A DNA stretch of 51,077 nt from Shigella phage ESh4, in sequence record ON528718; one strand, 5' to 3'. The translations under genes were made by a program, and so were the position numbers. The notes under the pieces were generated by a model, which was given only the letters and a program-made list of their open reading frames with translations, was not told where the DNA came from and did not search any database. Of this stretch, positions 1 through 50,812 are shown piece by piece (within the stretch, counting starts at the first letter, position 1; the number at the start of each line of letters is the position of its first letter).

Positions 1-56
1 GGAAGGTATGCAAAACGAATGGGTTAGGGATGTTTTACGGATCGGAGAAATGAGCG

Positions 57-251
57 ATGAAGAATTGTTTACGTCAAATGCTAATAGACAAAATATTGAA
101 GTTCTGCGCCGTAAGTTCAATCTCACATGACGAATTCATGCACGCAATGTTAACGCTCATTCATTCTGACATGCGAGCGTTTAACATATCAGAGCATAAT
201 TTGTGTGATGAAGACGGAGTTTTATTGGTTACTGTAAAGCGTATTGAATAA
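57..251 (+). CDS. hypothetical protein (64 aa)
   Basis: Complete ORF with GGAGAAA RBS-like sequence upstream; followed by hairpin terminator at 255-280. Confidence 0.4.
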   Translation: MKNCLRQMLIDKILKFCAVSSISHDEFMHAMLTLIHSDMRAFNISEHNLCDEDGVLLVTVKRIE

Positions 252-254
252 CAA

Positions 255-280
255 AGGAGGCGTTAAGCCTCCTTTTTGTT
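255..280. terminator. bidirectional intrinsic terminator
   Basis: AGGAGGC-GTTAA-GCCTCCT followed by TTTTGTT; between convergent ORF 57-251 and spanin gene. Confidence 0.6.
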
Positions 281-661
281 GCCTTTGCGGTAGGAAAAGT
301 AAAGCATAGTCAAAAGACCACTGAAAATTGCAGCGCAATAGATTATAGGATCGTACCACTTCCTTTGCTCACCCTGCACGACCTGGATTTTATCAGCCTT
401 GATGGTGTTAGCCTGAATGGTTGACGTAGTAAAATCCTTCTTGCTGGAAGTGTCCACCTTATCAACCGCAGATTCCTTTATTGTAGTTTCCTGTTTTGTA
501 CTGGTGTCCTGCTTTGCGGTAACGCCAACGGCCTGCTTTACGTTCTCCGCTCCTGCCTGTGCTGTGATTTCCGGCTTGCTACCGATTAATCCGGTCAGTG
601 GCTTAACGCTTGAACATCCAGACAAAATAACAGCGATCGCGATTATTGATAACTTTCGCAT
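263..661 (-). CDS. unimolecular spanin (u-spanin-like lipoprotein with C-terminal TMD)
   Basis: N-terminal signal with lipobox LSGC, hydrophobic C-terminal segment; sits distal in holin-endolysin-spanin order as in T1 gp11. Confidence 0.55.
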   Translation of the reverse strand: MRKLSIIAIAVILSGCSSVKPLTGLIGSKPEITAQAGAENVKQAVGVTAKQDTSTKQETTIKESAVDKVDTSSKKDFTTSTIQANTIKADKIQVVQGEQRKWYDPIIYCAAIFSGLLTMLYFSYRKGNKKEA

Positions 662-663
662 AA

Positions 664-1152
664 TTACAGATCCTTAATGCAATATTTAAATTCCACCGCG
701 CGGCGGTTGCGCAGTCCTTTAGACGTTTCTTTCTTTCCAGTTTTTGGATTAGTGTATTTGGTCCATCGCCATAACTGATTGCACGCGTCCATATAACGAC
801 CGTTATTAATCAGCTTAAGCATGGTTGAATTTCTAAATGCACCAGTGCCAGCATTGTATGTGAATGAATACATCGCTGCGCGCATTGTATCAGGAATGTC
901 AACCTTTACACGCTTATCAACTTCATCCTTTGCGATCTTTATATGCTTTGCCAGTAGCGCATTGCACTCTCTCTGTGTGTACGTTTTGCCTGGTATTACG
1001 TCAGGTCCAGTTATTCCGGCGCAAACCGTCCATATCCCAGCAATATCTTTGTACGGCTTATGTTTTACTCCTTCTATTTCCTCCAGTAGCGGAGAAGTAA
1101 GGGCAAGAGCAACGCCAAAAGCCGCAGCGGTCACTCTTTGTTTTATACTCAT
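664..1152 (-). CDS. SAR endolysin, GH24 lysozyme family
   Basis: N-terminal weakly hydrophobic Ala/Gly-rich segment ([17 protein letters not shown]) followed by E-x8-D-x5-T catalytic spacing ([19 protein letters not shown]); start overlaps holin stop. Confidence 0.8.
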
Positions 1153-1367
1153 TATTTACCTCTGATCTCAATAGCTTTCTTAATATCACCGCATTCAAGC
1201 GCGTCACGTAGCGCCTTACTATCACGCCAGCGAAGATAAGCGCCCCACATACCAAATGCAGCCATCAAAACGAAGCTGGCTATTGCGATGGTTGTTTGAC
1301 CAGTTACCGCGCCAGTGATTGACGCGCCGCCAGTTCCGGAAGTTGCAGCGTTTAAAAAATCTTTCAT
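1152..1367 (-). CDS. holin (class III / pinholin-like, 71 aa)
   Basis: Single TMD ([19 protein letters not shown]), charged C-terminus, immediately upstream of the endolysin. Confidence 0.6.
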
Positions 1368-1440
1368 GATTAGATCTCCTGTAAATAAAAGTCAACAATT
1401 AATTGATTGTATCCTAACCATTGAACGCACAAAAAGGAAT

Positions 1441-1470
1441 AAAAAAAGGGCGAAGCAAAATGCCACGCCC
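1441..1470 (-). terminator. putative intrinsic terminator between early gene and lysis cassette
   Basis: GGGCG...CGCCC stem with A-run on plus strand (T-run on minus) right after phosphoesterase stop. Confidence 0.4.
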
Positions 1471-1513
1471 AATTAAATTGATGATTTATATTTATATTTT
1501 AATGATTAAAAGT

Positions 1514-2632
1514 TCAACCAGCCATTTCTGGATAATGCATAAATCGCCCTACTTCTCCGTATTCTTTATCATAAACAATAACCGCCGCACGGCGACGAGA
1601 ACGCCATCCACCGCGCGCAGCATATGCATCTTTTGCCGCCATAGTGCTATGCACTTCAACAATGCCCAAGCTTGTTTCAGTTACTGTTTGATGATGCCAG
1701 TGCCCTACGTGAGCATACATCATTTTTGAATTGCCGAAGTCTTCGCGCCAGTCTGCAGCGCACATCATTAGCAATGTTTCAGGTTTGCGGATAGTATGCC
1801 CGTGATGGTATGCCAGGAACGTTTTGCCATATTGTGTGTGATGAACTACTCGCGGAGATACATCAACATGCACTCGTGGCTCATTCTCATACGCTGCCGC
1901 CATTGCTGCGCGCAACCAGATCATGCCGCTTTGGTCGTGGTTGCCTTCAATTATCTGAATCTCGACGTTTTTGTGTTTTGATAACAGCTTTGTGATTGCT
2001 CGACGCACTGACCGGATGGCAACATAAACAAGTTTTGCGTATCGACTATCTTGATCCAGTACGTGACCGCTTGCAGGTGTCACCGCTTCAAGTCCGTCAC
2101 TATGCAGCATGTCACCACCAATCAGTAAAACAGCCTTTTCACTATCCGGCGCGCACTGGATTGAATAATCAATGAAATTATTCATTACGCGCTCCGCTGT
2201 TGCTGTATCCCAATTCTCGCCGCATTCATGCTTATGCGCCATTGCGCCCAAATGCATGTCAAAGATCGGATACAGTGATAACGTCTCGCTATAATCATTT
2301 TTTGATTCTGGTTGCGGATCAAGTCGCGGAACTTCTTCGCTAAATGCATCCATGGCGGCTTGCATTAATGCTTCTAACTGTTCGCGGTCCTTGCTTGTCT
2401 TAATCCATGTCATAACCACATTGCCATCTTGATCAATTAGCTTTGATTCTCCAGTAACACCAAAACCAGGTGATCCGATGGTTGTAACTTTACCTTGCTT
2501 TGCTAAGCGTGCCGCGCGGCGCTCAATGCTGCGAACGTTCATACCATACTCATTAGCGATCTGCTTATATGTCTTTCCCTGCTTGCGCTCATTGATAAAT
2601 TGTTCATCTGTGATTTTGATTTGCTTCATCAA
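1514..2632 (-). CDS. HTH domain fused to calcineurin-like metallophosphoesterase
   Basis: N-terminal HTH-like segment (YKQIANEYGMNVRSIERRAARL); metallophosphatase motifs GGDMLHSD, GNHD and multiple His clusters (GHWHH). Confidence 0.7.
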   Translation of the reverse strand: MMKQIKITDEQFINERKQGKTYKQIANEYGMNVRSIERRAARLAKQGKVTTIGSPGFGVTGESKLIDQDGNVVMTWIKTSKDREQLEALMQAAMDAFSEEVPRLDPQPESKNDYSETLSLYPIFDMHLGAMAHKHECGENWDTATAERVMNNFIDYSIQCAPDSEKAVLLIGGDMLHSDGLEAVTPASGHVLDQDSRYAKLVYVAIRSVRRAITKLLSKHKNVEIQIIEGNHDQSGMIWLRAAMAAAYENEPRVHVDVSPRVVHHTQYGKTFLAYHHGHTIRKPETLLMMCAADWREDFGNSKMMYAHVGHWHHQTVTETSLGIVEVHSTMAAKDAYAARGGWRSRRRAAVIVYDKEYGEVGRFMHYPEMAG

Positions 2633-2727
2633 AAATTCTCCTTATCTCATTATGACAACATATACAATAGAGATCGCCATCATAACAGGTAAGGGCAAAA
2701 GTAACAAACGCCACATGATAATAATCC

Positions 2728-2970
2728 TCATTTGTAGTATTTGCGCGGCTCGCGAATTTTCGCCATAGCCTCTTTGAAATCAATCTTTGTTGGTATTGCT
2801 GGTACGCGATGCATCTTGCGCGGTCGTTCATTGAGAAATGTCATTTTGTCGCCGCTTATAATGCTTATGTCAGCAATATCAAAATATTTTGCTATCCTGG
2901 CTATGTCTTCAGAGATCCCGCATTCCTTTGCGTGATCCCATACGGCCTGCCGACCTTGTTCAACCTTCAT
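2728..2970 (-). CDS. hypothetical protein (80 aa; track ORF 2728-3018 trimmed to ATG)
   Basis: Track ORF begins at TTG; in-frame ATG (MKVEQG...) at 2970 overlaps stop of upstream small ORF (ATGA-type coupling). Confidence 0.45.
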   Translation of the reverse strand: MKVEQGRQAVWDHAKECGISEDIARIAKYFDIADISIISGDKMTFLNERPRKMHRVPAIPTKIDFKEAMAKIREPRKYYK

Positions 2971-6766: not shown

Positions 6767-7240
6767 ATGAAAGAAAAGCGGATCGCGGTATCAACTGGCA
6801 AGATTGACAAACGCACAATCAATGGCAATAACGGAACTCGACGTGGTAAAGATAAGAAAAAGCGAAAGCGCCCTACAGGATACTATGTTTTAAAAGATGA
6901 AGTGCGCGCCGGGCTAAAAGCGCGACTTGATATCCTTATTGAGTATTACGGAAGTGTGTCAGCAATGGCAAAACGTCTTAACGTTAGCCAGCAAACTGTA
7001 AATCAGTGGCGTGTTCGCGGTATGATTTCAGCCGCTGGCGCTCAAAAGGTGCATAACGATTACAAAAAATATGGCTGCCAAGGCTATCGCGCGTCATTCT
7101 GCCGTCCAGATCTGCGATTTGATTCCAATGGTAAACCGCTCACAAAGAGATGTGATAAGCGTGAAATGTTGCGAGTGGTAAGAATGTCAGATTATGAACC
7201 TAGCGGATTCCTGTATAAACCTGAAAGCACTAATTGCTAA
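6767..7240 (+). CDS. HTH DNA-binding protein (Cro/YdaS-like motif)
   Basis: MAKRLNVSQQTVNQWRVRGMIS helix-turn-helix signature; basic N-terminus; GGAGAA RBS. Confidence 0.55.
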   Translation: MKEKRIAVSTGKIDKRTINGNNGTRRGKDKKKRKRPTGYYVLKDEVRAGLKARLDILIEYYGSVSAMAKRLNVSQQTVNQWRVRGMISAAGAQKVHNDYKKYGCQGYRASFCRPDLRFDSNGKPLTKRCDKREMLRVVRMSDYEPSGFLYKPESTNC

Positions 7241-7295
7241 AAACAATGCCTGGCATGATGTTATCATCTGTCAGGCTTTTTTGCTTGAGGTGTAT

Positions 7296-8228
7296 ATGAA
7301 TAACGAAAACTTTATGGTTTATCAAAAGGAAGATGTTCTCCCATATATGCAAGGATTGTGGCGTGAGGCGCTACAAAGTATTTGCGGTCTTCCAAATGAA
7401 GTTTTTAACGGCAAGCATCAATCTTGCCCCCACTGCGGCGGAAAGGATCGCTTCAGATGGACGGATAAACTTGGCGATAAAAAAGGCGATGGCGGTGCGA
7501 TCTGCAACGTGTGCGGTAATGATACCGGAATTGGTTGGATCATGAAGCTAACAGGAGAACCTTACAGCGAAGTGATCAATATTTTGGGCCGTTTTCTTGG
7601 AAAAGTTCCTCAGGACTATAGAATCAAGGCAAATAAGCGAGTATCTCGTGATTCTGGTTATTCGTTTGGGAAACAGGCAAGCCATGAATGCTGCGAGCGC
7701 GTTATGTCAAAAACGCTAAAATTTGATCGCACGCCGTTAAGCACCTATGAAGGGATATATCCTCCTGAAGATGGTCATTATGAATGCGGCGTTAAAGATG
7801 GTCGATACATTCACGCGTTACCATGTTACCTGGTGCATTCCGATGATATTGATGATGAAATGTGCAATGTGCTTTTCATTGATGAAGAAGGTAAACAGTC
7901 TTTTCTCGCAAAGGACTACACGCGCGGGTCTGTTGTGAGAACAGGAAGCACCGATAAGACGATCTATCTTTGCGTTGACTGGATTGATGCGCAACACATT
8001 CACCTTGCAACTGGTCAGGAGGTTTGGGCCTGTTTTGATGCAACTAACATTGAGATTGTGGCTTACAGGTATAAAGGCAACAGAAGAATGCGAGTTGTCT
8101 GTAAGAGCACAGATCGTGACGCGATCATTGCTGCTGAGGAAAGAGGACTTGAAATTATGATGCCGATTAATGATAATTACAGGCAAGGGATAGAGAGGAA
8201 TGTTTACAAACCTGAATCTCTTCTCTAA
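7296..8228 (+). CDS. DNA primase (zinc-ribbon, P4-type primase family)
   Basis: CPHCGGKDRFRWTD...CNVCG zinc-ribbon typical of phage primases; start at ATG 7296 with GAGGTG RBS (track start 7194 overlaps previous gene). Confidence 0.7.
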   Translation: MNNENFMVYQKEDVLPYMQGLWREALQSICGLPNEVFNGKHQSCPHCGGKDRFRWTDKLGDKKGDGGAICNVCGNDTGIGWIMKLTGEPYSEVINILGRFLGKVPQDYRIKANKRVSRDSGYSFGKQASHECCERVMSKTLKFDRTPLSTYEGIYPPEDGHYECGVKDGRYIHALPCYLVHSDDIDDEMCNVLFIDEEGKQSFLAKDYTRGSVVRTGSTDKTIYLCVDWIDAQHIHLATGQEVWACFDATNIEIVAYRYKGNRRMRVVCKSTDRDAIIAAEERGLEIMMPINDNYRQGIERNVYKPESLL

Positions 8229-15262: not shown

Positions 15263-15291
15263 GATTTGCCCTCGTTTGTTGGTATGCCTGC

Positions 15292-15319
15292 ATTTTAGCT
15301 ATTTAATGCGTTTAGTCAA
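15292..15319 (-). promoter_or_regulatory. sigma70-like promoter (TTGACT-16-TAAAAT)
   Basis: Good -35/-10 pair 30 nt upstream of exonuclease start. Confidence 0.5.
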
Positions 15320-15429
15320 CAGTTATTTTGTTTTTTCTGTTCTAACAACGTTCCAGACGAATCGAATAACAAAATTTACATGTAAGTGATTGATAAATAT
15401 CTTTGTTGTCTTTTTGTTCCCTTGTTCCT

Positions 15430-15620
15430 CCGTTTGCGCCGGATATAGATATATAGACACACACAAACACTGACACATACACAACCACATAAAAATTACC
15501 AGGCACACAAAATCACACAAAACATAGATAACAAGAAAAAAACAAATATAAATATATATACTACTAACTTATTGATTTATATGTATGTATATATATTTAT
15601 CTGTATGTATAGCGCTCTAT
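15430..15620. repeat. low-complexity CA-rich then TA/TG-rich tract
   Basis: acacacaaacactgacacatacacaaccacata... followed by tatgtatgtatatatatttatctgtatgtata; non-coding divergent junction. Confidence 0.7.
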
Positions 15621-15690
15621 TGATGTTCACTTTTTGAGCTAAATTTAAGCCTCCGCAGATTTGAGAACACTGGAGAACAAAAAGAACAGA

Positions 15691-15733
15691 ATAGCACTTT
15701 TTGCTAAACGCCTACCGTAAGATCATGTATAGT
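15691..15733 (+). promoter_or_regulatory. conserved promoter-like unit (variant TTGCTA)
   Basis: ATAGCACTTTTTGCTAAAC + 21 bp + TATAGT, 32 nt upstream of ORF 15765. Confidence 0.5.
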
Positions 15734-15764
15734 TGCAACTAACAACAACGAAGGAGAAACCAAG

Positions 15765-15995
15765 ATGAAAAAATTAATCGCTGTTTTGATTGCGGCCGTA
15801 ACCCTGACTGGTTGTGCAAATAACCTGAAAAACGGAGACTGTGTTACTTACGCTTACGGATCCTGCATGATGCGCTTTGTTGATGGTAATAAAGTTCCAG
15901 CAGGAGAGATTGATATGCGATTCAAAGGGCTTTCGTCTGACGATAACCAGGGCAATTTCAGTGGTAAGGTATCTGTTAAATCTAGGGAGTGGTGA
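15765..15995 (+). CDS. small lipoprotein (possible Cor/Llp-like superinfection exclusion protein)
   Basis: Signal peptide with lipobox LTGC (MKKLIAVLIAAVTLTGC); 76 aa; located beside tail/host-range genes. Confidence 0.5.
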   Translation: MKKLIAVLIAAVTLTGCANNLKNGDCVTYAYGSCMMRFVDGNKVPAGEIDMRFKGLSSDDNQGNFSGKVSVKSREW

Positions 15996-42814: not shown

Positions 42815-42859
42815 ATTATACCTGGCCCCGCATTTGAGTTTTAACAATTCGTGCTATTT
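42815..42859 (-). promoter_or_regulatory. conserved promoter-like unit (variant)
   Basis: Sense AAATAGCACGAATTGTTAAAAC + 21 bp + TATAAT with GGCC...GGCC dyad around -10. Confidence 0.55.
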
Positions 42860-43748
42860 ACACTTTGACCTTCCACTTAACCATCGTTCCGCGCTTGATG
42901 CTAATCTCACCAGCAACGGTACGGTTTTTAGCGCCGCCATAGTGAAGCAGAAGAATAACAACATCATCATGAATCTCGATCGTCTTTGGCTTTGCCGTCA
43001 CCTCAAACCACATACCATCATCAAGCTGAACGCCTTTTAGTGTGGCGGCAACTGGCATATCTTCAATGGCGCCCTGCGTTACGATTTCTTGATTGGCAAA
43101 GGCGCTCTTATCAATACGCCAGCCTCCAGGTGCTTTCATTTTAACGGCTGCATTGTGGATCTCCTCGCCAATGGTTTTTTGAATTGACGTCTTCCCGCCG
43201 CCGAATGGTGTTTCCCCAAACAAGTGTTTTGTAATGTCTTCCACGTAGTACACCTTATCTTCTTCATTGTGTGGATTGAATTTGTTATGAGCGTTGACAA
43301 AGAAATCAACCTTAAGCTCTGATTTCTGACCGTCGCTATAAACGCCGTTGTCTTGTGACGTATAGCGAATCGTTGAGTTACCAACCGTGCGGAATACGAT
43401 CGGATACTTGATGTTATCCACGCTTAAGCACCACAATTTTTTATAGTCGCAGGTTTTCATATCTACCGTATGAATCTCTGCGCGTTCCGGTGAGCGCACT
43501 GGCAACACCTGGCCTTTATATGGCTTGTAGTGAAAACATGTGTATCCTGGCATTGCGTAACCGTAGTCTCTGAGTGAGTTGTAGTGTTTATTGTGCGCTT
43601 CAATTAAGTGTTCAATCTCCATTTTTGAAACATCAGGCTTTCCGTATTCGTTAAACTTAGTGCATGTATTTTTGTCTGAAAACATGAAGTGACCAACGCC
43701 GCGAGATTCGAAGGTGATTGGGAATTTAATGTTAGCAAGTTTTAACAT
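42858..43748 (-). CDS. hypothetical protein (296 aa)
   Basis: Largest unassigned early ORF; CAGGAGAAATAACC RBS. Confidence 0.55.
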   Translation of the reverse strand: MLKLANIKFPITFESRGVGHFMFSDKNTCTKFNEYGKPDVSKMEIEHLIEAHNKHYNSLRDYGYAMPGYTCFHYKPYKGQVLPVRSPERAEIHTVDMKTCDYKKLWCLSVDNIKYPIVFRTVGNSTIRYTSQDNGVYSDGQKSELKVDFFVNAHNKFNPHNEEDKVYYVEDITKHLFGETPFGGGKTSIQKTIGEEIHNAAVKMKAPGGWRIDKSAFANQEIVTQGAIEDMPVAATLKGVQLDDGMWFEVTAKPKTIEIHDDVVILLLHYGGAKNRTVAGEISIKRGTMVKWKVKV

Positions 43749-44567: not shown

Positions 44568-45038
44568 TTATTTCTCCTCATCGTTAAGGTATGTTTCTTT
44601 AATGATCGCGTGAAAGTCTGCGATCGCCTTAGCAAGTGTTTCATATTCATCTGGCGAGTAGTTCGCTAGGTTTGGTGAGACTTTAAGCATCGACTCAGCA
44701 ACCTGGCGTTTTGCTTTCGCTACAGCCTTCTCAAGCGCGGCCTTGTTGTATACCCTGCGATTAGGCGCACTAACAATCGCCACATCAAAGTAATTTTCCC
44801 CGAAATATTTGTGATCAGGGCCGTAAGGTTTCTTTGAAACTGAAACCCTCCCTTTCTCCGCCACTTCTGGAACTCGCCCCATAATCTGACGCAGATATGA
44901 TCCGGCATTGCTGGCTGACTTCTTGCCCTCCAGGTGCTGCCTTACCCATCTTTCAGGTATCTGGATCGATTCGTGCAATCCAGATGCGAGCGCAGTAGCA
45001 ACCTTGCGAAGCTCATTTGTAAATACAGATTCACTCAT
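44568..45038 (-). CDS. hypothetical protein (156 aa), first gene of leftward early operon
   Basis: ORF with GAGAGGG RBS downstream of TTGACA-17-AATAAT promoter. Confidence 0.5.
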   Translation of the reverse strand: MSESVFTNELRKVATALASGLHESIQIPERWVRQHLEGKKSASNAGSYLRQIMGRVPEVAEKGRVSVSKKPYGPDHKYFGENYFDVAIVSAPNRRVYNKAALEKAVAKAKRQVAESMLKVSPNLANYSPDEYETLAKAIADFHAIIKETYLNDEEK

Positions 45039-45069
45039 GCTTTATACCCTCTCGTGATTCAGTGGCTGC

Positions 45070-45098
45070 ATTATTATTTACCATTCCTGGCGTGTCAA
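45070..45098 (-). promoter_or_regulatory. sigma70-like early promoter (TTGACA-17-AATAAT)
   Basis: Perfect -35 TTGACA on minus strand, 17-bp spacer, AATAAT; 30 nt upstream of ORF 44568-45038. Confidence 0.5.
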
Positions 45099-45229
45099 AT
45101 GTTTTTTATTGTTATTGGCAGTTTTTCAATGTTGTCTTTTCATAGCACAACAAGATTCTCGTTTTTCTCCTTATAAATCAATGTTATTTTGGCGTGTTAT
45201 CTAAAAATGCGCGGATTCGCCCCTACCCC

Positions 45230-45370
45230 ATATATACATACCTGCCAACACACAACCACATACAATCACCAAAAATACATCAGACATCAATATGACCACA
45301 TAACATACATAACAGATAGTAATTTATAGATACATATAAATAAATAATCCTTATTTTTTAGTATGTTATA
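45230..45370. repeat. low-complexity CA-rich / TA-rich tract
   Basis: ccaacacacaaccacatacaatcacc...cataacatacataacagatag...; shares the 13-mer acacaaccacata with region 15430-15620. Confidence 0.6.
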
Positions 45371-45422
45371 TGGATTTCTCTTGTTATTTTTTGTTATGCG
45401 ATTCCACGCCGGAATAACACGC

Positions 45423-45460
45423 ATAACAGCGATAACAGAAGATAACAGATGTGCGCGCCA
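45423..45460. repeat. ATAACAG direct repeats (3-4 copies)
   Basis: cATAACAGcgATAACAGaagATAACAGatg; iteron-like. Confidence 0.5.
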
Positions 45461-45579
45461 GGATTGCCGAAAAGGACGCAAGAGGACCGCGTTTATCTAT
45501 CCCCTCCACACAAAAAGTTAATCAACTGATTAAAATTGATCAAACTCAAAGTCTCACAATCCAGGTGATCGCGAATGAG

Positions 45580-45619
45580 TTATTCCTGTTATTCCTGATT
45601 AATGGAATAGATGGAATAA
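45580..45619. promoter_or_regulatory. operator-like array of four TTATTCC half-sites
   Basis: TTATTCCTG TTATTCCTG attaat GGAATAGAT GGAATAAT: two direct repeats and two inverted copies with 9-bp period, just upstream of promoter unit 45632-45677. Confidence 0.5.
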
Positions 45620-45631
45620 TCGCCAGTTGAG

Positions 45632-45677
45632 AAATAGCACTTTTTGTTAAAACTGAATCCGCCTGATCGGGTACATT
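45632..45677 (+). promoter_or_regulatory. conserved promoter-like unit (first rightward gene)
   Basis: AAATAGCACTTTTTGTTAAAAC + 22 bp + TACATT, 40 nt upstream of ORF 45717. Confidence 0.5.
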
Positions 45678-45716
45678 ACACACATCGAAACGAGACACCC
45701 ATCAGGAGACGGTAAG

Positions 45717-45989
45717 GTGAACATCAGCAAAACCACTTTCAACTTTGCAAAGCGTCACGGTCTGGATCTGACTGTTGAAGACTTCGGCGATGTTCTGCAA
45801 CTCTGCATTTGGGAAGCGGATAACGATTGCGAGTGGCTTTGCTCTTATCGTATCAATTACGATTGCTTAACCTGGCACGGTAATATCTATCTGCCGCAAG
45901 AAGTGAAAGAGGAATTGCCAGCTACCATCAATAATGAAGTGTTTTTGCGCAAAGTCCTGAAGTTTATTGCTGATGAGATCAAGAAATGA
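45717..45989 (+). CDS. hypothetical protein (90 aa)
   Basis: ORF with AGGAGACGG RBS, GTG start. Confidence 0.5.
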   Translation: MNISKTTFNFAKRHGLDLTVEDFGDVLQLCIWEADNDCEWLCSYRINYDCLTWHGNIYLPQEVKEELPATINNEVFLRKVLKFIADEIKK

Positions 45990-46231
45990 TTAGTGAAGTG
46001 GATTTTGAACTTGCCGAGGCCCAGGTAAGGGCCAAAAAGATGGGTTTGCGTATACTGACGAAAACCGTGGAGTTTCCGTCGATGCCGTTCGCATCATTCC
46101 ATAAAGTGACGGTGTTCAGTAGCAAACGCGAGTTTAACGCGCTAATCCCTGCTGGTGATGATAAGCGCATGGCAAAATTTATTAACGAGTCCTGTGATGT
46201 TCTGATGGCAGTTAAACACGATCAACAATGA
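45986..46231 (+). CDS. hypothetical protein (81 aa)
   Basis: ORF track, ATGA overlap with upstream gene. Confidence 0.5.
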   Translation: MISEVDFELAEAQVRAKKMGLRILTKTVEFPSMPFASFHKVTVFSSKREFNALIPAGDDKRMAKFINESCDVLMAVKHDQQ

Positions 46232-49228: not shown

Positions 49229-50812
49229 ATGAATTTTTCGTTTGAAACCAATAAACTAACACCAAAACAAATTATCGAATTAGCTGATGCACAAGGATTG
49301 TCTCCGGTGCGCGTGTCCATTCAGGCAAACGGATACCGTCAATCGTCCAGCTTTTGGGGTGAGGTTAATGATGTTAATAACGGAAACGATCGCTACCCTG
49401 TAATTTCTCTTGGCAATGATGTTGATATTGTTGGAAAGTTAGCGCGCAACATTGCTCGCTCTGTTCAATTCCCTGAATCATCGGCCTATATGCATTTTAT
49501 CGGCTGCGTGTCTGCTGCAATGCTTGGGCGATTCACGGTTGAGTATCACGGAACGGATCAGCCAACCGCTCTTTATGTTGTCACAAGTCAGCCTCCTTCA
49601 ACTGGTAAATCTGCCGTTAACAGCCTGGCTCTTGCTCCAATGGTTGCAGAAGTGGAAAGAATTAACGATCAGCGAAAGAAGGAAAGAAAAAAGATTCAGG
49701 CAAAGTTGGCAGGTCTTGCAAAAGAGATGAAAAGCGAGCGCTCCGGCGCTGATATGGAATCTCTGTACCAGGAGAAAGAAGATCTGGAAGAAAAACTGGA
49801 AAAGATGTGTGACATCGTTTTCCCTGTGTCCGACACCACGCCGGAAGGACTTGCAAGAATCAACAATCGCCAGGGTAACTTTGCTGTGATTTCAGACGAG
49901 GCAACAAGTATTAACAGCCTTTTAGGTCTGACATATGCCAATAGCGAACGTAAAACCAACAGCGAACTTGTTCTGAAAGCATGGGATCATGGTCATGTTT
50001 CTATAGCTCGTGCAAACGCTGACAACAATATGAGTTTTAAAGCTCTTGGCTGCATGGCGGTAATTGCCCAGGATGAAACAATCAATGCCATCATGGATGC
50101 AGGATCGCGAGGTATTGGTGTAAGTGAGCGTTATTTGCTTGTGCGTGAAGAATCATTTTTAGGTCGTCGAAAGTTTGTTGATGATAACGGTGATTCGACT
50201 TATGAGCCTGTTGATGGAGAACTGAAAAGCCAATATTTTAAGCTGATCCATAACATCATGAGTGAATCAAACATCCAGCTTAAGATCAGTAAATCAGCAA
50301 TGCGAGTTCTTAACATGGCTCGTCAGGAGATGGAGCCGCACCTTGCTGATGGAGGAAAGTATTCGCATACAATGCTGCGCGGTGCGCTTGGCAAAATGGA
50401 TAAGCAGGTGATCAGGATTGCTTCGGTTTTGCACACTATCCGCAATTGGTTTAATCCTGGTGGATACCCTCAGAAGTCGAAAGAGATTGAAGTTGAAACC
50501 GTTCAGGAAGCACTGTTGATGTTTAGCGAGTTGAGCAAAACATACATTAGCGCCGCCAACGCTTCTGGCTATGCTGGTGATGATGCTGAGATGGGTAAAC
50601 TAATCGAGATTATCACTCGACACGGTAAGGCTAACAAGGGGATCTTGAATGTGCGCGCCATATATGAGGCTGCACGAAAAGTTAAGCCGTTTGTTGGTCA
50701 GGCTGGCGTAATGAAGCGTATGGAAACGCAACTGCTGCCGATGCTTGAAGAAAGAAATTATATTTGTGTGATTAATGGCGTTGTTTTTGTAAATCCAACA
50801 TTGCTGGGGTAA
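49229..50812 (+). CDS. P-loop NTPase (DUF3987-like; possible replication/helicase-associated ATPase)
   Basis: Walker A-like VVTSQPPSTGKSAV and Walker B-like NFAVISDEAT; 527 aa; AAAAAAGGAG RBS. Confidence 0.5.
   Translation: MNFSFETNKLTPKQIIELADAQGLSPVRVSIQANGYRQSSSFWGEVNDVNNGNDRYPVISLGNDVDIVGKLARNIARSVQFPESSAYMHFIGCVSAAMLGRFTVEYHGTDQPTALYVVTSQPPSTGKSAVNSLALAPMVAEVERINDQRKKERKKIQAKLAGLAKEMKSERSGADMESLYQEKEDLEEKLEKMCDIVFPVSDTTPEGLARINNRQGNFAVISDEATSINSLLGLTYANSERKTNSELVLKAWDHGHVSIARANADNNMSFKALGCMAVIAQDETINAIMDAGSRGIGVSERYLLVREESFLGRRKFVDDNGDSTYEPVDGELKSQYFKLIHNIMSESNIQLKISKSAMRVLNMARQEMEPHLADGGKYSHTMLRGALGKMDKQVIRIASVLHTIRNWFNPGGYPQKSKEIEVETVQEALLMFSELSKTYISAANASGYAGDDAEMGKLIEIITRHGKANKGILNVRAIYEAARKVKPFVGQAGVMKRMETQLLPMLEERNYICVINGVVFVNPTLLG

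Follow-up and report, generated by a model that had tools for sequence, protein, structure and literature searches.

The closest described systems to the locus reported here are the left-end regions of the phages T1 and TLS. In TLS, position 1 of the sequence record is the end formed at the packaging start (pac), which was mapped by restriction digests from a submolar HindIII fragment (TLS paper). A 21-nt repeat, aaATAGCACnnnTTGnTAAAA, has been published for TLS, T1 and Rtp (German, Kropinski, Misra and co-authors 2024; PMC11447400), with its function left open and a stoperator, an enhancer or a UP-like element proposed. Here we analyse the homologous gap without genes in Shigella phage ESh4 (ON528718; Table 1). 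The window is the whole 51,077-bp sequence, which represents a complete T1-like siphovirus genome (Hanrivervirus; Drexlerviridae, Tempevirinae) with Hanrivervirus phages as its closest relatives. The SU57 paper places the pac of T1-like phages in this untranslated region and reports an abrupt change in read depth there; beyond the TLS and SU57 papers, our literature searches turned up no mapped origin, transcription starts or fine-mapped pac for the T1 family.

Our reading, which we hold to be fairly probable, is that the gap is the left-end control region of the T1 family, combining divergent early promoters and pac with an origin-like (or enhancer-like) module of which the genome has two. 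Nearly all the features listed in a first-pass annotation made from the ESh4 sequence alone are present, most of them beyond chance expectation, and its interpretation is supported in part. We regard the locus as a genuine, functional stretch of non-coding DNA. As such it is ordinary, because the gap is the already known left-end/pac region of the family. What is new is that it splits into a single-copy block associated with pac and a duplicated origin-like module, and that the 21-nt repeat gains a promoter model. For the comparisons below, relatives were collected individually, and a locus search with the DUF7174 protein encoded left of the gap gave three close loci; over the 1.4 kb around the gap, a nucleotide search found 92-95% identity with vB_EcoP_06, pSf-1, 2019SD1, damhaus and vojen.

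Position 1 of the GenBank record falls inside the homologous gap in T1, TLS and Rtp alike, and for T1 and TLS it is the mapped pac end. The first-pass annotation had named packaging initiation among the possible roles of the gap, and on this point the homology with T1 and TLS supports it. The T1 and TLS left-end regions lie, like that of ESh4, between the DUF7174/TLS gp01-type gene of the arm that carries the small terminase gene (terS) and an opposite arm of small genes. The homologous gap also divides two small-gene blocks in damhaus and JakobBernoulli, the leftward block leading to terS over about 8 kb and the rightward block to genes for a Dcm-type methyltransferase and a helicase; in ESh4, too, the gap is flanked by divergent arms of small early genes, with terS about 8 kb to the left. 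The order of elements is the same in ESh4, T1 and TLS (sigma-70 promoter, short repeats, CA-rich and TA-rich tracts, TGATT-rich block and 21-nt cassette), and the islands CCAGG, CTATC(C)CC and the TGATT-rich block are shared; outside such short islands, nucleotide identity to T1 and TLS is low. The words of the repeats differ, being ATAACA in ESh4, GTTAATCG in T1 and GTGAACA in TLS. Unlike ESh4, T1 has a second intact cassette in the gap, a promoter that stands at the place equivalent to 45450-45516.

The ESh4 sequence is oriented opposite to the T1, TLS and Rtp records, and an alignment of the architectures sets the equivalent of T1/TLS position 1 at about 45500-45575, within the block rich in TGATT/AATCA and GATC. 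Near position 1, TGATT is enriched in T1, TLS and atuna (p 0.005 to 1e-5) and marginally so in ESh4 (p 0.09), in a test that was post hoc. The haarsle record is cut between 45506 and 45507, the sole cut of a relative inside the single-copy block (45450-45630). The gap thus probably holds the DNA-packaging start site, predicted at about 45500-45575, with packaging leftward; the packaging start was mapped for T1 and TLS, and in ESh4 it is predicted from the positional equivalence.

Several points weigh against this placement. The TLS pac was refined solely by a 6-nt resemblance to the pac of P22 (TLS paper), and the T1 and TLS positions are those of coarse, low-resolution restriction maps. The record starts of other relatives are mostly arbitrary, those of egaa and vojen falling near the block and outside it, and we count record starts as weak evidence for pac. 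We also looked for co-variation between the type of inverted repeat found beside the cassette and the small terminase TerS, and rejected it: TerS follows phylogeny in all segments.

In P22, pac lies inside gene 3, and pac in ESh4 could likewise be within terS or adjacent to it (about 36.5-37.0 kb), in which case the record starts would be inherited numbering and 45450-45630 an operator of the rightward promoter or a decayed second cassette promoter. TerS does belong to the P22 gp3 family, and its failure to co-vary with the inverted-repeat type, the intact T1 cassette where ESh4 has 45450-45516, and the inability of PhageTerm to define ends for several T1-like phages all agree with such a site. 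The T1 pac, on the other side, has reportedly been mapped independently and cloned at the left map end, consistent with the annotated terminal repeat of 1..2800. In TLS the site was mapped experimentally, with a submolar pac fragment and with record position 1 at pac, and the abrupt read-depth change reported by the SU57 authors falls in the same untranslated region. We therefore consider a pac at terS to be improbable.

A proteome-wide comparison for a protein that would follow the inverted-repeat type, and so be closer to T1 than to atuna, found none except a 296-aa protein also present in TLS. This protein (42858-43748, minus strand) has no Pfam family; its homologues in T1 and TLS are 31-39% identical, and it is absent from the much closer relative atuna.

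The packaging region was also compared with the pac of P1, in which clusters of TGATC(A/G) hexamers with Dam sites flank the cut and an IHF site is present. Each of the three GATC sites of the gap is part of a TGATC(A/G) hexamer (45537, 45566, 45664). One of them has an IHF-consensus match next to it, and T1-like phages encode a Dam methylase. The three hexamers compare with seven in P1, in clusters of 4 and 3, and we rejected a P1-type pac; since about 21% of the GATC sites in the genome share the TGATC(A/G) context, the likeness is weak, and it was noticed post hoc.

The block at 45450-45630, GGAATA repeat included, occurs only once in the genome, and identity above 90% with many relatives begins at about 45421-45452. 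Two features of the block stand out. The first is the palindrome TTAATCA-NN-TGATTAA, which is conserved in relatives. The first-pass annotation had seen here a near-palindrome matching the IHF consensus, followed by a second palindrome. Both palindromes are present, starting one base off the position first given, and the consensus WATCAANNNNTTR is indeed matched at 45520-45532. As an IHF site the match is weak: the pattern occurs seven times in the genome against 4.3 expected, with no enrichment, and the match is not conserved, because the core reads ATCAC rather than ATCAA in most relatives (damhaus, pSf-1, 2019SD1, A143 and herni).

The second feature is the inverted repeat at 45580-45619, in which two direct and two inverted TTATTCC half-sites had been described at 9-bp spacing. 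This description holds: the half-sites are 9 bp apart, the inverted repeat is significant (z = -4.2), and it is the sole GGAATA cluster in the genome. T1's only GGAATA/TATTCC cluster occupies the same position beside the cassette, about 30 bp from T1 position 1. Other phages differ at this position: atuna and tonn have three copies of TGATTAC, and TLS has two of GACCAATCGGTC. The inverted repeat is a candidate binding site for the terminase or for a regulator of the adjacent promoter.

To the left of the single-copy block lies the repeat module at 45100-45450, which we call module B. The hexamer ATAACA/TGTTAT occurs 13 times in the 678-bp gap against 0.83 expected (p about 6e-12). The three to four ATAACAG repeats noted at first pass are three copies of ATAACAG and one of ATAACAC, and the low-complexity CA-rich/TA-rich tract described with them is equally real, with 80% C+A at 45221-45300 and 80% A+T at 45301-45400. 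The latter is the second most AT-rich 100 bp of the genome and the former its second most CA-skewed window. All relatives that we compared have equivalent CA-rich tracts, and atuna and tonn share the conserved AT-rich core. Conservation also favours the repeat positions. The left TGTTAT positions are kept where their flanks have diverged, and the tandem array at 45414-45448 is kept in variant form in A143 and atuna; in the diverged left half of these two phages, the ATAACA hexamers are 76-81% identical compared with 54-61% elsewhere (permutation p 0.003 and 0.016).

A second divergent gap, at 15263-15765 (module A), has the same anatomy in the same order as 45100-45450. No other places in the genome are as AT-rich or as CA-skewed as modules A and B, and A ranks first in both respects. 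They have 82 eight-mers in common, compared with a maximum of 36 for any other window, and they are the densest 500-bp windows for [ATG][ATG]AACA (13 each, against a genome mean of 3.8), many of whose same-strand spacings within A and B are 8-11 bp. By NNAACA density, A and B rank as the top two windows in ESh4 and atuna and within the top three in T1 and TLS. Each of the five T1-like genomes that we examined (ESh4, T1, TLS, atuna and Rtp) has the pair, and the cores of A and B match one another within each genome (Table 1). Because the module has a paralogue at 15263-15765 and the pair is maintained, its CA tract, TA core and "iterons" are not specific to the packaging site. Nor is the gap the single "main hub" of the genome that it had been taken for, given that this low-complexity/iteron part is duplicated at 15.3-15.8 kb, that the rightward promoter is one of at least 18 repeat copies and that there are further sigma-70-like sites.

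Left of the TATATA/CA-rich tract, both modules carry an element of the CGCGGA / TTTCCGCGGAA type, at 45205-45222 in B and 15431-15447 in A. This short element is found again in atuna, in TLS and in the two modules of Rtp, where it forms a clear palindrome.

What the modules do is less certain than that they exist. Their anatomy is that of an iteron origin, with 13 ATAACA hexamers in B, many of them 9-10 bp apart, bracketing the 80% A+T core, and the A/B duplication strengthens the case for a function in replication origin. The core at 45317-45362 is a candidate DNA-unwinding element. The replication proteins are of interest here. The primase (7194-8228) is homologous to residues 22-262 of P4 alpha, its primase domain (E 8e-13). 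The DUF3987 helicase (49229-50812, plus strand) gave an AlphaFold model with pLDDT 88.9, the best PDB matches of which are eukaryotic and archaeal MCM subunits, MCM2-7 among them, with Orc1/Cdc6 lower in the list, and it has a C-terminal winged helix at residues ~450-527. Because of these MCM/Orc1 matches and the winged helix, the DUF3987 protein looks like an MCM-like replicative helicase/initiator. PDB sequence searches with the helicase and the primase returned no match.

Compared to the origin of P4, the modules show a partial likeness. P4 ori and crr carry TGTTCACC repeats at 9-11-bp spacing, and these type-1 repeats are bound by the alpha primase-helicase. As in P4, the short repeats of ESh4 (core AACAG / GAACA) are spaced 9-11 bp apart, run in both orientations, have AT-rich DNA beside them and fall in two distant regions; oriL and oriR of the Bacillus phage SPP1 are a second precedent for origins in two distant regions. 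The ESh4 words ATAACAG and AGAACA have only AACA(G) in common with TGTTCACC, and the repeats nearest to those of P4 are found in TLS (GTGAACAG vs GGTGAACAG). A P4-type origin was considered and rejected: only the primase domain is homologous, the helicase is MCM-like, and the genome has no sequence homologue of the helicase and origin-binding domains of P4 alpha.

An origin role for modules A and B is thus a possibility that we put forward tentatively, on grounds of sequence. A more specific hypothesis would have replication of T1-like phages start at two paralogous modules, the first located at the pac end and the second beside the recombination genes. The loader would be the DUF3987 helicase, acting through its C-terminal winged helix, or a Cro-like protein whose gene (6767-7240) lies upstream of the primase gene and overlaps it. 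This hypothesis is more tentative and should be regarded as doubtful. A number of observations weigh against both. The helicase winged helix is generic, with no specific likeness to the P4 alpha origin-binding domain in a fold search; the GC skew of the genome follows gene orientation alone; and in Rtp, where the repeats are of GTAAC type, A and B are not among the top NNAACA windows. The repeat consensus also varies across phages and between A and B (ATAACA, GAACA, GTAACA, TTAACA), so that one binding protein would need to tolerate this variation. Finally, the TLS authors found neither iterons nor an origin (PMC11447400).

The same arrays and AT-rich cores could instead be enhancers or regulator arrays for the flanking promoters, occupied by the protein that recognises the cassette (ATAGCAC) or by Fis, IHF or H-NS, and setting an early-to-middle switch. 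The position of both modules exactly between sigma-70 and cassette promoters would suit such a role, and a tandem array abuts the cassette in module A and, analogously, in region B of T1. In addition, the repeat ATAAC(A)C/G is one base from the cassette half-site ATAGCAC, and, of the seven matches to the IHF consensus genome-wide, three are located in A or B. AT-rich upstream regions are, moreover, typical of strong phage early promoters. The dimensions fit less well: the repeats are scattered over about 350 bp, their distance from either promoter core reaches 350 bp, and the four-copy array in B is 190 bp from the cassette. The 80% A+T core, the inverted repeat sets and the skewed tract exceed known UP/enhancer elements and fit the usual anatomy of origins, and the IHF match in B is not conserved. 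Taken alone, an enhancer function to the exclusion of origins seems to us rather unlikely. Origin and transcriptional roles are in any case compatible, not exclusive. The reading of the gap as an operator array, proposed at first pass, is not supported in that form: the ATAACA repeats are not classical operators, because they overlap neither promoter core.

Both modules sit between divergent promoters. The description of the gap as a non-coding divergent promoter region was borne out: its left side has a conserved sigma-70 promoter and its right side a promoter unit. The leftward promoter, TTGACA-17-AATAAT, is a near-consensus site that matches 11/12 positions. It is the only promoter-like match within the gap, the other match in a 2-kb scan lying outside it at 46185; genome-wide, nothing scores above it and one intragenic site equals it. 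Its -35 and -10 elements are kept in damhaus, pSf-1, 2019SD1, A143 and atuna, and equivalents are present in herni, tonn, T1 and TLS. Transcription is predicted to begin at about 45063 and to reach the DUF7174 gene first. Sigma-70-like sites matching 10/12 positions occur elsewhere, apparently in intergenic places, at 15319, 6688 and 37867.

The rightward promoter unit proposed at first pass is real and exactly delimited, and it is one of 14-18 dispersed copies of the published 21-nt repeat rather than a feature peculiar to this locus. The sequence at 45632-45652 has no mismatch to the commonest variant of the Drexlerviridae repeat, points the same way as the gene that follows, and has its first base 85 nt ahead of the GTG codon, compared with about 76 nt reported for TLS. 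The genome holds 14 copies within 3 mismatches of the 21-mer, against 0.01 expected, and 18 within 4 mismatches of the 18-nt core, all of them co-directional with downstream genes. In 17 of the 18, a -10-like hexamer (CATAAT, TATAAT, TATAGT and similar) lies 19-20 nt past the motif, which therefore spans about -52 to -32. There is no -35 hexamer at the cassettes, and a conserved leader (CATCGAAACGA..GAGGA) and a ribosome-binding site follow the -10. The motif is an imperfect palindrome, TAGCA-N5-TG(C/T)TA, with TAGCA-N5-TGCTA in many copies and in most of those of Rtp.

Because the -10-like hexamer stands at a fixed distance, the 21-nt repeat reads as a promoter without a -35. What the ESh4 copies add to the published repeat is this fixed -10, the lack of a -35 and the partial palindrome. 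We infer that the cassettes may be activator-dependent promoters, with a dimeric activator in class II position, for which the conserved Cro/YdaS-like helix-turn-helix protein (6767-7240) is a candidate. At the gap, the predicted start of rightward transcription is at about 45684.

Several cassettes have a G+C-rich hairpin in the spacer that resembles an intrinsic terminator on the opposite strand. In region B of Rtp (45750-46160, minus strand), there are two cassettes, and the roughly 220 nt between them, unannotated and richer in G+C, could hold a small gene or an RNA.

The coordinates of the features are collected in Table 1.

Table 1. Features of the ESh4 gap and its surroundings, of module A, of the 21-nt repeat copies and of the homologous regions in related phages.
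Feature	Genome	Position	Strand	Details
Gap without genes	ESh4	45039-45716		678 bp, between leftward 44568-45038 and rightward 45717-45989 genes
First gene left of gap	ESh4	44568-45038	-	DUF7174 product, E 3e-27; TLS homologue (gp01-type) at 30% identity
Leftward sigma-70 promoter	ESh4	45098-45070	-	-35 TTGACA 45098-45093, 17-nt spacer, -10 AATAAT 45075-45070
Left TGTTAT group	ESh4	45100-45200		copies at 45110, 45182, 45195; includes invariant AAATCAATGTT
CA-rich tract	ESh4	45221-45300	+	80% C+A, alternating purine/pyrimidine, strand-asymmetric (CATATATACATAC...ACACACAACCACATACAATCACC)
AT-rich core	ESh4	~45317-45362, within 45300-45397		inverted ATAACA flanks: ATAACA 45300, 45309; TGTTAT 45364, 45382, 45392
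Tandem ATAACA(C/G) array	ESh4	45414-45448	+	ATAACAC 45414; ATAACAG 45423, 45432, 45442; spacing 9, 9, 10 bp
Single-copy conserved block	ESh4	45450-45516		GCGCGCCAGG..GAAAAGG..GCAAGAGG..CTATCCCCTCC
TGATT/AATCA- and GATC-rich block	ESh4	45517-45579		contains the palindromes and GTGATCGC at 45565
Palindrome TTAATCAACTGATTAA	ESh4	45518-45533		TTAATCA-AC-TGATTAA
Palindrome TTGATCAA	ESh4	45536-45543		
Inverted repeat	ESh4	45580-45619		(TTATTCC x2)-TGATTAAT-(GGAATA x2); TTATTCC 45580, 45589; GGAATA 45604, 45613
Rightward promoter	ESh4	45632-45677	+	21-nt repeat AAATAGCACTTTTTGTTAAAA 45632-45652, 20-nt spacer, -10 TACATT 45672-45677
Ribosome-binding site of rightward gene	ESh4	45704-45709	+	AGGAGA, upstream of GTG at 45717
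First gene right of gap	ESh4	45717-45989	+	PHROG of unknown function; GTG start at 45717
21-nt repeat copies, minus strand	ESh4	3215, 4235, 6753, 39201, 40546, 41848, 42857, 43847, 44311	-	
21-nt repeat copies, plus strand	ESh4	7224, 15691, 26909, 30669, 45634, 46512, 47082, 48481, 49157	+	
Module A, second divergent gap	ESh4	15263-15765		same anatomy and order as 45100-45450 module
Module A leftward sigma-70 promoter	ESh4	15319-15292	-	TTGACT-16-TAAAAT, toward exonuclease VIII-like (recE-like) gene
Module A interior	ESh4			TGTTC repeats, TATATA/CA-rich tract, AT-rich core, in that order
Module A tandem AGAACA x3	ESh4	15664-15689		abuts 21-nt cassette (15689) driving gene starting 15766
A-B core match	Rtp			123 bp, 83%, E 1e-33
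A-B core match	atuna			140 bp, 71%, E 2e-11
A-B core match	T1			91 bp, 75%, E 3e-10
A-B core match	TLS			123 bp, 68%, E 6e-6
A-B core match	ESh4			137 bp, 67%, E 3e-4
Genes flanking record start	T1 (NC_005833)	48674 (last gene start); 539 (first gene start)	- (48674)	terminal repeat annotated 1..2800
Genes flanking record start	TLS (NC_009540)	49707; 589	- (49707)	
Genes flanking record start	Rtp	45749; 546	- (45749)	

Nothing that we found in the gap points to a coding or structured-RNA content, and the earlier view that it holds no credible open reading frame (ORF) stands. The ORFs within 45039-45716 (45287-45481, 45451-45630 and others) have no Pfam match, and the single PHROG match among them is weak (E 0.004). 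Relatives have either no annotated ORF in the gap or small ones that differ and are non-homologous, likewise with no Pfam match. An Rfam scan of the gap with E up to 1 found no match, and ARAGORN found neither tRNA nor tmRNA genes in it.

Similarity breakpoints with other Drexlerviridae cluster within the gap at 45161, 45421-45452, 45603 and 45632. The right part, comprising the pac-associated block, the inverted repeat and the cassette, is >90% identical in herni, JakobBernoulli, slyngel and aaroes, whose left part is unrelated. Because the right part is common to phages with an unrelated left part, the gap is a recombination junction of exchangeable modules.

Such a mosaic junction, together with the wholesale replacement of the left half in herni and JakobBernoulli, could also mean that the gap apart from its promoters is an inert spacer, an AT-rich, low-complexity residue of recombination with repeats arisen by slippage. 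This seems to us highly improbable: the ordered architecture persists in four Drexlerviridae subfamilies despite sequence turnover, the repeat positions are preferentially conserved, and each genome carries two copies of the module with cores 67-83% identical.

If the gap is a left-end control region as we propose, events there may run as follows. Unmodified host RNA polymerase would use the leftward sigma-70 promoter immediately, transcribing the leftward small early genes. At the rightward cassette, an activator in class II position, perhaps the Cro-like helix-turn-helix protein (6767-7240), would bind the TAGCA-N5-TGYTA element. The terminase would recognise 45450-45630, for which the TTAATCA/TGATTAA palindrome, the TGATC(A/G) sites and the TTATTCC/GGAATA repeat are candidate signals, make its first cut at about 45500-45575 and from there proceed leftward, taking in the repeat module and the left early arm. 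Less certainly, A and B may be two origin-type sites of loading and unwinding, with their repeats occupied by a phage DNA-binding protein; divergent transcription could aid melting of the AT core, and the MCM-like helicase and the P4-alpha-like primase would then initiate replication.

In the course of the comparisons with relatives, we came across about 20 GenBank records labelled "Campylobacter phage" (MG0656xx, unverified) that are 86-94% identical to the ESh4 genome, a Hanrivervirus of coliphage type. They probably stem from E. coli phages that had contaminated preparations of Campylobacter phage.

T1-like phages often contaminate laboratories and are candidate agents of phage therapy. With its fixed -10, the 21-nt repeat now has a promoter model that can be put to the test at the 18 genes or gene groups preceded by a cassette. 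The two-copy module is maintained across four Drexlerviridae subfamilies, and the split of the gap into a single-copy and a duplicated part guides the search for the origin(s) and for pac. If the two-origin reading is true, it would locate the long-missing origin of the T1 family and tie it physically to the packaging start.

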